Shown here: positions 58,708-61,823 of the stretch, piece after piece
Numbering within the stretch: the stretch's first letter is position 1
Layout: each line of letters begins with the position of its first letter
Assembly: GCF_052119425.1 (NCBI RefSeq)
Contig: NZ_JBQKFH010000011.1
Coordinates: 3,155-67,154 of the forward strand
Length of the DNA: 64,000 nt
Direction of reading: 5' to 3'
Origin: Enterococcus cecorum
GTDB taxonomy: Bacteria > Bacillota > Bacilli > Lactobacillales > Enterococcaceae
The notes under the pieces: generated by a model
The model's database searches: none
Told to the model about the DNA's origin: nothing
The model's input: the letters and a program-made list of their open reading frames with translations, nothing else
Made by a program: the position numbers and the translations under genes

Positions 58708-59547
58708 ATGTCAAAAATTATTTTTCTCGATGTTGATGGGACTTTAGTAGATTATGATAACACGTTGCCTGAATCTGCCAAACTGGCTATTCAAAAGGCA
58801 CGGGCAAATGGGCATCTAGTTTACGCATGCACTGGGCGAAGTAAAGCGGAAATGCCCGATTATATTTTAAATATCGGACTGGATGGGATGATTGGGGGCA
58901 ACGGGGCCTATGTCGAACATGACGGCAAGGTGATTATGCATCAAATGTTGTCTGCCAAAGATGTTCGTGAAATTGTCGATTGGTTGCATGAGCGGCAATT
59001 AGAATTTTACATCGAGAGCAATAACGGGCTTTTTGCGAGTGAAAACTTTCGTGAAGTGGCGCGTCCAGTCATGAAAAAATACGCACTGAAAAAAGGAAAA
59101 AAGCTAGAAGAAGTAGCTGATCAAGAAGTAGAAGACGTGCTACATGGCGTCGTTTTCGGTGGGAAGCTGTATCGGGATGATGTGAATAAAATCAGCTTTA
59201 TCCTCAACTCTTATGAAGACCATGAAGCAAGCAAACAAGCCTTTGCCCATCTAAAAGCTGGCACATGGGGTGGTGTTGGCGAAACAGCCTTGTTTGGTGA
59301 TTTAGGTGTGAAAGACATTACCAAAGCGCATGCCATTGATGTTTTACTTGACCATCTGCACGCTTCAAAGACAGATACGATTGCCTTTGGAGATGCGAAG
59401 GTCGATATTCCGATGCTTGAATATTGCCAAATTGGTGTCGCAATGGGCAATGGTGGCGAAGAAATCAAAGCTATGGCCGATTTTATTACCGATGCAGTAG
59501 AAGACGATGGACTTGCCCATGCTTTTGAAAAATTAGGTTTAATCTAA
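58708..59547 (+). CDS. Cof-type HAD-IIB family phosphatase
   Basis: Motif I FLDVDGTL; 279 aa with a cap domain typical of the Cof subfamily. Confidence 0.8.
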   Translation: MSKIIFLDVDGTLVDYDNTLPESAKLAIQKARANGHLVYACTGRSKAEMPDYILNIGLDGMIGGNGAYVEHDGKVIMHQMLSAKDVREIVDWLHERQLEFYIESNNGLFASENFREVARPVMKKYALKKGKKLEEVADQEVEDVLHGVVFGGKLYRDDVNKISFILNSYEDHEASKQAFAHLKAGTWGGVGETALFGDLGVKDITKAHAIDVLLDHLHASKTDTIAFGDAKVDIPMLEYCQIGVAMGNGGEEIKAMADFITDAVEDDGLAHAFEKLGLI

Positions 59548-59548
59548 C

Positions 59549-59592
59549 AAAAAAAAACGCTCAGCCTTGAAAATGAGGTTGAGCCTTTTTTG
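59549..59592. terminator. Bidirectional terminator
   Basis: A9-CGCTCAGCC...GGTTGAGCC-T6. Confidence 0.55.
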
Positions 59593-59594
59593 CC

Positions 59595-59837
59595 TTAATA
59601 TTGCGCTTGAATCGTGACTTGATTTTGCTTTAAGCCTGTTTTTTTGAAAAAGTCCTGAATAAAAAGTTGTGAATGTGTATAAGGACTTTCTGCATCCGTT
59701 AAGGTCAGTACGTAAAACTTATCATAGGGATTCATCCAGACCCCAAAATTCTTCAAAGCCACGATGTCGATATTGGGGGCATCTGCGGTTAATTCGATTT
59801 TGTATTGACGAACATTATGCATATTGTTGAAATTCAT
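59595..59837 (-). CDS. Hypothetical 80-aa protein
   Basis: ORF with a downstream terminator; no recognisable motif. Confidence 0.4.
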   Translation of the reverse strand: MNFNNMHNVRQYKIELTADAPNIDIVALKNFGVWMNPYDKFYVLTLTDAESPYTHSQLFIQDFFKKTGLKQNQVTIQAQY

Positions 59838-59911
59838 TTCCTGCCTCGATTCTATGGTTTATTTATTTATATGATAACACTTTCACAAAAAGAAAGCTAT
59901 TTTCTGAAGTA

Positions 59912-60185
59912 TCAATCAAATAAATCATCATGTTTACCCGTTCTAGTTAACACCAAAGTTATACTTTCTTTCTCTATTTTATAAATCAAAAGCCAATCAT
60001 TTTCAATATGTAACTCTCTATATCCTTGCCAATTTCCTTTTAGCGAATGGTCCTTATGTCTTTAACTTATAAGTATCCTTTGAAATAATGCATTCGACAG
60101 CAACTTTAACTTTAGTAATATCATAGTGCTTCTTTTTGTATCTTTTCAAGTCTCTTTTAAATGCAGGAGTTTGCCTAATCTTCAT
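59912..60185 (-). pseudogene. YafQ/RelE-family type II toxin, disrupted by a single-nucleotide frameshift
   Basis: Fragment 1 (60185-60054) reads MKIRQTPAFKRDLKRYKKKHYDITKVKVAVECIISKDTYKLKT*. The +1 frame continues KDHSLKGNWQGYRELHIENDWLLIYKIEKESITLVLTRTGKHDDLFD*, which parallels E. coli YafQ ...KDHPLQGSWKGYRDAHVEPDWILIYKL..RTGTH. The total length is 274 nt, i.e. 91 codons plus one extra nucleotide. Confidence 0.6.
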
Positions 60186-60372
60186 TGATACTCTGCCACC
60201 ATTCTTCTACACTATCAAACGCTTCTGTATTTCCGCTTTCTACGTCTAACCGTGCTTTGATGTTTTCTAAATCTTTTAGTGTATAGATATATTCAATAAT
60301 TAAGTCAAGTTCTTCAGCATTGAGACCATTAATCATCCTAGTTAATTCATCCACTTTTGCAGACATTTTCAT
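60175..60372 (-). CDS. Putative antitoxin, upstream of and overlapping the yafQ-like toxin start
   Basis: 65 aa, acidic C-terminus; a possible short beta-strand plus two helices (RHH-like); its stop overlaps the toxin ATG by 11 nt. Confidence 0.45.
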   Translation of the reverse strand: MKMSAKVDELTRMINGLNAEELDLIIEYIYTLKDLENIKARLDVESGNTEAFDSVEEWWQSINED

Positions 60373-60427
60373 CGCTCCATTCTTTTAATAAAAAAAGCTG
60401 ACTTCAACTATAATATATCATTCATTG

Positions 60428-60456
60428 TGATAAAAGTGAATGAATTAGTATGAAAC
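60428..60456. promoter_or_regulatory. Inverted repeat ATTCATTgtgataaaagtgAATGAAT just downstream of a TATAAT (60406-60411): candidate auto-operator of the TA operon
   Basis: 7-bp arms with a 12-bp spacer, placed at the putative transcription start site of the antitoxin gene. Confidence 0.35.
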
Positions 60457-60505
60457 TACAAATGAAAACAGAGATTATTCTTTATTTAGTTTATTCACAA
60501 AGAGT

Positions 60506-60549
60506 TAAAAATGTGTAGCAAGAATATTTCACCTTACTACACATTTTTG
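60506..60549. terminator. Bidirectional terminator downstream of the ABC-2 permease gene
   Basis: A5-ATGTGTAG...CTACACAT-T5. Confidence 0.55.
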
Positions 60550-60551
60550 AG

Positions 60552-61823
60552 TTATTTCACGGTTTTCATTAATTTGATGGATTGTTTAAAGGCCGCCAAT
60601 ACCCCACGGTCATTGTAAACGAGGACATTGGCTTTATACATTTTCGCTGATAAGACCATCACCACGGTACTAATCACGATATTTAGCGCTAAACTGATGA
60701 AAGCACCTGGATAGCTGACCACTTCATTGACAATTCTAAGTGGCATCGCAAAACTAGACCAATATGGAATATAAGAAGTAATGGTTAAAATCGGACTTTG
60801 CGTATTGGTAAAGCTAAAGACCAAGCCGCCAAAATAGCCAATCATCGCCAAATACATCACCGGCATAATGGCTTTGGAGGTTTCTTCTGCGCGATTGACA
60901 AGAGAGCCTGCCACCGCTGATAAGACCGCATATTGGACAATTCCCGTCAAGACAAACAGCGCCACTAAGACAATATTTAAAAATAAAGTCCAACTAAAGT
61001 GCGCCCCAAAATCCACACTTGCTAAAAATGGCGCCAGTTGCTCATTATCCTTGAATTGATATAAACCAAACAAAAAGACGGGAATGTAGACAGCCATCTG
61101 CGTCAAACCAACCAAGATGACCCCCATGATTTTTCCATAATAATGCGTGCTTGCCTTGGTACTCGATAAAATAATTTCCATAATCCGACTACCTTTTTCC
61201 GTCGCAATTTCTTGGGCGATAATATTGGCATAATTAGCAATAAACAAGAATAAAATAATCGTGCAGGCAAATCCGATAATCATCTGAACCGCTGCGCCAT
61301 CTTCTTGTTTTTTCGTTAAGTGGCCTTGATCATTGACGGTCACTTTATTCACCGTAAGTGGCACTTGTTGGTCGAGTTGGGCCAATTGTTGCGCACTTAA
61401 CCCTAACTTTTGGGCAGAAACTTGGCGTTGGATTTGACTTAACATCATGCGCAATTTCAGCTGCGTACTGGTTTCCACACTATCTTTGGCCAATAATTTT
61501 GCTTCAAGGACCTCTTTTGAAGTATCTAAAATTAAGAAGGCATCAATTTTATCCTCTGCCAGTTGCTTTTCACCGGCCTTTTCAGATTTCATCGCAATAA
61601 ATTCGAATTCCTTTGATTGGCTCAAGGCGTTGGCAAGCACCATCTGTTGGTCATACACACCAATTTTGTCAATGCTAGACGCGTCACTCATAAATTTACC
61701 CATGCCATAATATAAAGCACCAATTACAAGTGGCGCCAACACCATAATCAAAAAGGCAGCCGAACGTACTTGTTTTTTATAAACATTTAATGCAATAATC
61801 CAAAACTTACTCATTTTCCGCAC
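60552..61823 (-). CDS. ABC-2 family transporter permease
   Basis: 423 aa; N-terminal TM segment, a large extracytoplasmic loop, then 5 C-terminal TM segments (ABC-2/YhgE-like topology). Overlaps the ATPase gene by 17 nt. Confidence 0.7.
   Translation of the reverse strand: MRKMSKFWIIALNVYKKQVRSAAFLIMVLAPLVIGALYYGMGKFMSDASSIDKIGVYDQQMVLANALSQSKEFEFIAMKSEKAGEKQLAEDKIDAFLILDTSKEVLEAKLLAKDSVETSTQLKLRMMLSQIQRQVSAQKLGLSAQQLAQLDQQVPLTVNKVTVNDQGHLTKKQEDGAAVQMIIGFACTIILFLFIANYANIIAQEIATEKGSRIMEIILSSTKASTHYYGKIMGVILVGLTQMAVYIPVFLFGLYQFKDNEQLAPFLASVDFGAHFSWTLFLNIVLVALFVLTGIVQYAVLSAVAGSLVNRAEETSKAIMPVMYLAMIGYFGGLVFSFTNTQSPILTITSYIPYWSSFAMPLRIVNEVVSYPGAFISLALNIVISTVVMVLSAKMYKANVLVYNDRGVLAAFKQSIKLMKTVK

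Follow-up and report, generated by a model that had tools for sequence, protein, structure and literature searches.

The locus described here lies on the minus strand of a 64,000-nucleotide (nt) stretch of DNA (hereafter the window), which our homology searches placed in Enterococcus cecorum, a bacterium of the chicken gut. It has the layout of a type II toxin-antitoxin (TA) module, that is, two small overlapping genes with the antitoxin first, and it consists of a gene for a 63-amino-acid (63-aa) antitoxin followed by a YafQ-family toxin gene that is split between two reading frames (Table 1). Many other genomes and metagenomes contain the syntenic locus, and the same pairing is kept in Enterococcus faecalis and at the loci L048 and L042-L044 discussed below. 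An earlier annotation made from the letters alone (the original prediction) had proposed a type II antitoxin-toxin pair whose YafQ/RelE toxin is inactivated and whose antitoxin is intact. Our analysis upholds this outline and revises the account of the lesion, of the antitoxin and of its regulation. The window very probably carries a chromosomal type II YafQ pair in which the toxin has been killed by a 5-nt deletion, a mosaic antitoxin has been left intact, and decay has proceeded toxin first.

Table 1. Features of the antitoxin-toxin locus and its surroundings, in window coordinates (ORF, open reading frame).
Feature	Position	Strand	Remarks
ABC-2 permease ORF	60552..61823	minus	ends at 60552, upstream of the pair
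Terminator-like hairpin	60507..60548	minus	17-pair stem directly after the ABC-2 permease stop
Inverted repeat ATTCATT-N12-AATGAAT	60420..60445	strand-neutral	extends from the -35 to the TG, ahead of the -10 element
Promoter-like site	60412..60440	minus	-35 TTCACT at 60440..60435, 17-nt spacer, TG-extended -10 TGaTATATT at 60420..60412
Antitoxin gene, 63 aa	60175..60366	minus	extendable to ATG 60372 (65 aa)
Toxin gene, N-terminal part	60054..60185	minus	43 codons and premature TAA (60056..60054), peptide ends ...DTYKLKT*
9-bp direct repeats AAGTTAAAG	60112..60104 and 60068..60060	minus	both copies in the window
Deletion junction	60055..60058	minus	ATTCT/TTCTA/TCTAT equivalent; 2-nt AT microhomology; aligned to intact L001 and L030
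Toxin gene, C-terminal part	59912..60055	minus	+1 frame, KDHSLKGNW...DDLFD*, TGA at 59914..59912
80-aa ORF	59595..59837	minus	74 nt downstream of the toxin, same strand; module membership unproven

A split YafQ gene behind an intact antitoxin gene

The two parts of the toxin gene together measure 274 nt, and each part resembles a different stretch of the same family profile. The N-terminal part matches positions 1-37 of PF15738 (YafQ_toxin) with an E-value of 1.8e-5 (25.3 bits, below the cut-off), and the C-terminal part matches positions 42-88 with an E-value of 1.7e-20 (73.5 bits). When the two are joined, the score against PF15738 rises to 101.5 bits (cut-off 30) and the RelE/StbE model TIGR02385 is also matched at 90.9 bits (cut-off 27.9); only the narrower YafQ model TIGR00053 is missed, at 76.2 bits compared with its cut-off of 87.25. 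The two-frame YafQ/RelE toxin of the original prediction is thus borne out, since both of its fragments align significantly with the family profile. Judged by these profile matches, which lie far beyond chance, the split gene is a YafQ/RelE-family toxin.

YafQ proteins are ribosome-dependent mRNA endonucleases, and by its family the intact toxin would be one as well. The intact E. cecorum allele, a protein with an isoelectric point (pI) of 9.5, aligns with E. coli YafQ structures (4ml2) at an E-value of 2.4e-18, placing its KDH, ELH, DDW and GKHDDLF motifs opposite KDH, DAH, PDW and GTHAALF. The active-site residues of the E. coli protein, which we take to be His50, His63, Asp67, His87 and Phe91, have their counterparts among the conserved His, Asp and Phe positions of this alignment, and all of these fall in the C-terminal part. 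The N-terminal part therefore holds none of the catalytic residues, and the C-terminal part has no start codon with a ribosome-binding site from which it could be made separately. A single uninterrupted toxin frame is absent from the window and present in the intact loci described below.

The antitoxin gene upstream is open throughout. The 65-aa ORF originally proposed exists (60372..60175), but a second ATG at 60366 gives a product of 63 aa, and this is the start chosen by gene callers in other genomes. A GGAG sequence (60378..60375) lies 2 nt before the first of these ATG codons and 8 nt before the second. The toxin gene begins within the antitoxin gene: its ATG at 60185 precedes the antitoxin stop codon (TAG, 60177..60175), and the two coding sequences overlap by 11 nt, in agreement with the overlap noted in the original prediction. 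In this order and overlap, as in the fold family of the toxin and the aligned His/His/Asp/His/Phe positions, the pair resembles E. coli DinJ-YafQ (4ml2, 4q2u, 4ml0). The differences are that the toxin here scores below the TIGR00053 cut-off and is a pseudogene in the window, and that the antitoxin is of another build than DinJ, as described below.

These features suggest how the module would work. In strains with an intact allele, one TG-extended promoter would drive a two-gene message, and because the genes overlap by 11 nt, translation of antitoxin and toxin would probably be coupled. The C-terminal segment of the antitoxin (ENIKARLDVESGNTEAFDSVEEWWQSINED) would hold YafQ inactive, which we propose because the segment is homologous to the C-terminal parts of RelB/DinJ-type antitoxins that are paired with YafQ. 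Depletion of the antitoxin would then lead to mRNA cleavage by YafQ on the ribosome. In the strain of the window, translation would halt after 43 residues, before every catalytic residue, so that the toxin would be dead and the antitoxin effectively an orphan.

The toxin lesion and its counterparts in other strains

The original prediction ascribed the split to a 1-nt frameshift and read the 274 nt as 91 codons plus 1. The length is right, but the reading is not, since 274 is 279 minus 5 and not 273 plus 1. Comparison with orthologous loci in other strains recovered an intact toxin gene of 279 nt (92 codons, reading ...KLKT-F/V-YKDHSLKG...) at the same E. cecorum locus, namely in L001, L029-L033 and L036-L039, among them that of the type strain DSM 20682. 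Alignment to these alleles shows that the window is without 5 nt (ATTCT) at nt 129-133 of the coding sequence, where GAC-ATTCT-ATAAGG has become GACATAAGG. The lesion falls at toxin codon 44, and the premature TAA after codon 43 is its direct result.

An alternative raised at the outset was that the frameshift is a sequencing, slippage or assembly error and that the toxin of this strain is really intact. Indels are common as assembly errors, and a single window could not by itself exclude one. However, the missing 5 nt lie in non-repetitive sequence (GACATTCTATAAGG) and not in a homopolymer, and the same deletion recurs in independent material. Fifteen contigs, which stem from different ENA and Logan samples and assemblers, carry a gene call for the 43-aa product of the deleted allele. 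We fetched eight of these loci, and the deletion is present in them wherever the sequence could be aligned. It is also found in a 2.29-Mb contig of the genome GCA_947055925 (L034), whose toxin region is identical to that of the window. Moreover, the deleted allele occurs on several promoter haplotypes and has acquired later changes of its own, an extra 4-nt deletion in L021 and L023 and the substitution T84M in L022 and L025. With recurrence in at least 15 contigs and a genome contig, the artefact explanation fails and we regard it as highly improbable.

We likewise give hardly any credence to programmed +1 ribosomal frameshifting across the split, or to a phase-variable toxin switch at this locus. 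A +1 shift at ACA-TAA-G would indeed yield a near-full-length protein, and the premature stop is situated exactly at the frame junction. Known +1 recoding sites such as that of prfB combine a slippery run with a Shine-Dalgarno-like stimulator, but this junction has no slippery run and no such stimulator upstream of it, and a tRNA-Thr on ACA cannot re-pair on CAU. The joined product would also be without the conserved Phe-Tyr before KDH, and the intact alleles need no recoding at all. As for phase variation, the 5-nt deletion lies outside any repeat tract, and the other null alleles of the species are nonsense codons or a 44-nt deletion, which offer no reversion by slippage.

These other null alleles form a series. 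The 5-nt deletion is carried by the window, L019-L026 and L034. A deletion of 44 nt (nt 74-117) between the 9-bp direct repeats listed in Table 1 is found in CP010064, OX346406 and OX346403, where it leaves a single copy of the repeat, and its product was called on 23 contigs. Three nonsense alleles complete the series: Y21* (TAT>TAA) in CP010063, Q55* (CAA>TAA) in four Logan contigs, and K25* (AAA>TAA) in a metagenome-assembled genome labelled Ca. E. stercoripullorum (L041). Because the lesions differ, we infer that the at least five loss-of-function alleles of the species arose as independent events. In the 24 longest contigs with a gene for the exact antitoxin, the toxin is intact in about 12 and has the 44-nt deletion in 10, with the 5-nt deletion and Y21* in one contig each; these counts are approximate, since each representative also stands for similar places that are not shown. 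Table 1 of PMC4393107 identifies CP010064 as the pathogenic strain SA3 and CP010062 and CP010063 as the commensals CE2 and CE3. CE2 has an intact toxin, CE3 carries Y21* and SA3 carries the 44-nt deletion; from three strains we draw no conclusion.

Two further observations concern these alleles. All strains with the 44-nt deletion (L002-L006, L027 and L035, with CP010064/SA3 among them) share an A>C change inside the -10 hexamer (TATATT to TATCTT), which, going by the hexamer, should weaken the promoter of the pair. On the ENA contig L047 (coverage 2.4), toxin codons 1-27 run on in the same frame into the C-terminal end of the HAD hydrolase (921-1118), and the 80-aa ORF has the opposite orientation to that in the window. 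Either an inversion has destroyed the toxin here or the low-coverage assembly is chimeric.

A mosaic antitoxin and the regulation of the pair

The antitoxin is recognised by none of the family libraries that we scanned. Pfam, NCBIfam, PADLOC and PHROGs gave chance-level matches only, and a scan with the RelB/DinJ profile PF04221 gave no match at E <= 1. Its relatives are few: nine clusters in a collection of 5.8 billion proteins, of which those with a source name are all from Enterococcus, and four proteins when 1.84 billion representatives were searched exhaustively with a profile. A tblastn search of 50,697 phage and 72,556 plasmid records found no match, and the only matches from a profile search of the PDB sequences, to a designed repeat protein, were spurious. 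Behind each relative of the antitoxin comes a YafQ gene or what remains of one.

More distant matches from the genome scan align only with the C-terminal half. In BLASTP, residues 21-63 share 47% identity (E = 3e-12) with a PF04221-positive antitoxin from Alkalibacterium that adjoins a YafQ gene. We found such RelB-type relatives in Tetragenococcus (L042), Alkalibacterium (L043), Companilactobacillus (L044) and Lapidilactobacillus (L045), the first three of which adjoin YafQ genes and the last only a short possible remnant. The window protein shares with them the C-terminal motif QAR-x-[DE]-x-x-x-G-x-x-E-x-F-x-[ST]-V-[DE]-E-W-W-x-x-x-N. Their N-terminal parts, in contrast, are unrelated to that of the window protein and its enterococcal relatives in the alignment: in L043-L045, the three that were scanned, it is the N-terminal part that matches PF04221, with scores of 28.6-38.2 bits (cut-off 22.4). 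The statement in the original prediction that the antitoxin is not obviously DinJ-like consequently holds for the missing PF04221 match and for the N-terminal part, but not for the C-terminal half, which is homologous to RelB/DinJ-type antitoxins. On the strength of these alignments, the antitoxin is a mosaic of a RelB/DinJ-type C-terminal segment of about 30 residues and a different N-terminal part. E. coli DinJ makes its contacts with YafQ through its C-terminal domain (PMC6529426).

The AlphaFold2 (AF2) model of the antitoxin has helices at residues 3-13, 17-44 and 53-61 and no strand, so that the N-terminal part is predicted to be a very acidic helical hairpin; fold comparison of this model gave no significant match. 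The whole protein has a pI of 4.05 and a net charge of -11.5, and its N-terminal part (residues 1-32) has a pI of 4.3 and a charge of -4.5, whereas in the RelB-type relatives the charge of this part lies between -0.2 and +4.5. Ribbon-helix-helix (RHH), helix-turn-helix (HTH), AbrB and Phd-like domains were not matched in the Pfam and NCBIfam scans. In the RelB/DinJ family, E. coli DinJ included, the corresponding region is a ribbon-helix-helix dimerisation and DNA-binding domain, and because an acidic helical hairpin appears to have replaced it in this protein of 63 aa, the antitoxin probably does not bind DNA itself. We compared the N-terminal part with those of the neighbouring RelE/ParE-type antitoxins in enterococcal prophage elements, but hhalign gave probabilities of only 69% and 13%, and we do not claim a relationship.

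Antitoxins without a DNA-binding domain occur in three-component modules, for example epsilon in omega-epsilon-zeta and PaaA in PaaR-PaaA-ParE. From this general background, the window protein would resemble them as a small, acidic and purely neutralising antitoxin whose regulation is left elsewhere, with the difference that no third regulatory gene was identified here.

The original prediction had instead suggested autoregulation through an inverted repeat directly following a TATAAT box. The repeat exists, but the TATAAT is on the plus strand (60409..60414); on the coding strand it is the -10 element that follows the repeat. The pair needs a promoter of its own because the terminator-like hairpin behind the ABC-2 permease gene closes the upstream ABC-transporter operon, and the sole candidate facing the pair is the site in Table 1, which matches the consensus at 9 of 12 positions and has the TG extension in addition.

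A conventional autorepressor, with the 63-aa protein acting on the repeat alone or together with the toxin, would be in keeping with two circumstances. The repeat covers this only promoter-like site from its -35 to its extended -10, and autoregulation is the norm for type II modules, an example being the L. paracasei DinJ-YafQ pair (PMC9592637). Nevertheless, the repeat is no better than chance. A comparable repeat appears in 41% of shuffles of the 179-nt intergenic region, and the window contains 155 perfect 7-nt inverted repeats with spacers of 3-20 nt, or 2.4 per kb. Its presence in nearly all E. cecorum alleles (one has a mismatch) is of little information, as the whole spacer is near-identical. 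The protein for its part has no RHH/HTH/AbrB/Phd-like match, no strand in its model and a strong negative charge, and the homologous pair of E. faecalis follows another gene at a distance of 20 nt and lacks a separate promoter region. We therefore consider autoregulation via the repeat doubtful and an autorepressor of this kind unlikely.

Relatives, antitoxin retention and neighbourhood

Outside the species, a homologous pair with an intact toxin is present in E. faecalis, composed of a 62-aa antitoxin (about 66% identity to that of E. cecorum) and a 91-aa YafQ (about 71%; 3179..3454 in L007). It is carried by a prophage-like element (L007/L008, 1523-5616) between genes for a cI-like repressor and a split integrase. 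Elements of the E. canintestini type, as well as an IMG/VR viral contig, carry a homologue of the antitoxin followed by only the first 8-11 or so YafQ codons (MRIEQTPAFKR..., MRIEQTSAFKE...), and by this reading of the remnants the toxin has been deleted there too.

Several side observations were made in these relatives. Beside the E. faecalis pair are a second RelE/ParE-type pair, a zinc-ribbon protein and a 280-aa TIR-domain protein, and from this gene content the cargo region looks like a small defence/addiction island. A 135-aa ORF in L009, L010 and L011 (2124-2531) begins with the N-terminal 62 or so residues of an antitoxin of the 78-aa type and goes on as a RelE/ParE-like toxin that sets in near its residue 6. 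The E. faecalis element L007 has a separate gene for each (2509-2745 and 2745-2981), and the ORF looks like a natural in-frame antitoxin-toxin fusion. Toxins beside related antitoxins are often broken as well: the gene of L042 is interrupted by a stop in the DW motif and that of L043 by one at codon 5, L045 retains only a remnant, and the toxin of L048 has lost one A in a run of A. Some of the contigs L041-L043, L045 and L048 are low-coverage metagenome contigs in which sequencing errors are possible.

Within E. cecorum, the antitoxin gene is the least variable segment of the locus. Over 33 aligned loci its 192 nt have 5 variable sites and no disruptive change, a low variation that is partly built in because 10 of the loci were retrieved via the exact antitoxin protein. 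The same loci have about 14 substituted sites and three deletions in the 279 nt of the toxin and about 15 variable sites in the 243 nt of the 80-aa ORF, and variable sites are denser in the non-coding spacers. None of the 23 toxin-null loci has a disrupted antitoxin. Decay of a TA module is usually a one-way path, in which loss of the toxin is safe and the antitoxin cannot go first. Repeated toxin loss with the antitoxin kept fits this expected course, and toxin-first decay, one of the alternatives offered in the original prediction, proves to be the right one.

A different reason for this retention could be selection, if the antitoxin confers immunity (anti-addiction) against related YafQ toxins of prophages and other mobile elements. 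Such pairs do exist in the E. faecalis and E. canintestini prophage-like elements, between cI-like repressor and integrase, and in the one IMG/VR contig, and the E. cecorum and E. faecalis antitoxins hardly differ in their C-terminal segment, which makes cross-neutralisation plausible. The intact state of the antitoxin in every toxin-null locus and its 5 variable sites, compared with about 17 events in the toxin, are also as this explanation would have it, and orphan antitoxins have already been discussed as anti-addiction modules (PMC7192599). On the other hand, the numbers are small, the sample is biased to exact antitoxin matches, and no relative appeared in the phage and plasmid records searched. 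Divergence is very low, so that recent neutral decay explains the retention. Furthermore, the antitoxin changes D21N, G45E, A49T and D63Y are all on toxin-null backgrounds and none is on the 10 intact backgrounds, which hints at relaxed constraint and not at selection, in numbers too small to test. Taken together, selection for immunity does not seem likely to us.

A more far-reaching version would tie these strands together: exchange of the DNA-binding N-terminal domain of a DinJ-like antitoxin for an acidic helical hairpin made a YafQ module that no longer regulated itself and was costly, the toxin was for that reason knocked out again and again, and the antitoxin was kept as an immunity gene against prophage YafQ. 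If true, a costly unregulated module would explain both the at least five knock-outs in E. cecorum and the losses in the E. canintestini-type prophages. We consider this scenario improbable.

Returning to the reading that we prefer, a decayed YafQ pair with a dead toxin and an intact mosaic antitoxin, several points weigh against parts of it. The toxicity of the intact allele and its neutralisation by the 63-aa protein are read from sequence, and we also infer that the antitoxin does not bind DNA and why, in evolutionary terms, the toxin was lost repeatedly. The AF2 model is of moderate confidence (pLDDT 75.6) and was built from 8 similar sequences, and the lack of a known fold does not prove the lack of DNA binding. 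The position of the inverted repeat, right over the promoter, is one that TA operators often take. The independence of the null alleles follows from the differing lesions and not from a strain phylogeny. Finally, our sample of loci is biased, many having been retrieved via broken toxin products and ten via the exact antitoxin, and the allele frequencies and the conservation of the antitoxin are therefore approximate.

There is a precedent for such variation among the Lactobacillales. In the chromosomal DinJ-YafQ_rh6 module of L. rhamnosus (Lacticaseibacillus), some strains have a 57-bp deletion in yafQ and an intact antitoxin, and the truncated toxin, which is shortened at its N-terminus and keeps its catalytic residues, has little or no toxicity (PMC6529426). 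That module is strain-variable like the one described here, and its deletion is analogous to the 44-nt and 5-nt deletions; it differs in having a regular DinJ antitoxin and one truncated variant, compared with the at least five null alleles of E. cecorum. Orphan antitoxins are common in other species, and for the orphan antitoxins and degraded TA loci of bacterial populations, for example in Klebsiella pneumoniae, degradation and anti-addiction have both been discussed (PMC7192599). Unlike those orphans, the lesions here can be read base by base, and several apparently independent ones are found at a single locus.

The toxin is an ordinary YafQ/RelE member and the pattern of decay is a familiar one, so that current views of TA biology are not overturned. 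What is new, as far as the sequence comparisons go, is an antitoxin variant that lies outside the four scanned libraries and is confined to a handful of enterococcal sequences. For annotation, the locus should be described as a yafQ pseudogene caused by a 5-nt deletion together with an intact antitoxin that Pfam, NCBIfam, PADLOC and PHROGs do not recognise. It offers a natural within-species series of toxin-first decay, with at least five lesions in a gene of 279 nt and about half of the sampled genomes intact, and this series could be used for dating and counting the loss events on a strain tree. It also illustrates the modularity of antitoxins, as the same C-terminal and probably YafQ-neutralising segment is found on two unrelated N-terminal domains.

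As for the wider neighbourhood, the papers that we found on E. cecorum genomics treat TA modules only in generic terms and do not describe this locus. An Rfam scan of 59300..60900 gave nothing near any gathering score, which speaks for no known RNA antitoxin or regulator in this interval. The conserved gene order is ABC ATPase, ABC-2 permease, 63-aa gene, YafQ, 80-aa ORF and a convergent HAD hydrolase. The pair has a G+C content of 31% and the 80-aa ORF one of 36%, compared with 41-43% for the flanking genes. This composition would fit an old horizontal acquisition, and no mobile-element genes were found near the pair in the E. cecorum loci. The 80-aa ORF is present in every E. cecorum locus and missing from the E. 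faecalis element; family scans gave as its sole match a weak one to DUF3884 (E = 0.13), with no recognisable DNA-binding family. There is no terminator between the toxin gene and this ORF. A strong hairpin of 11 pairs with T-runs (59559-59584) separates the 80-aa ORF from the convergent HAD hydrolase gene; it probably serves as a terminator in both directions.

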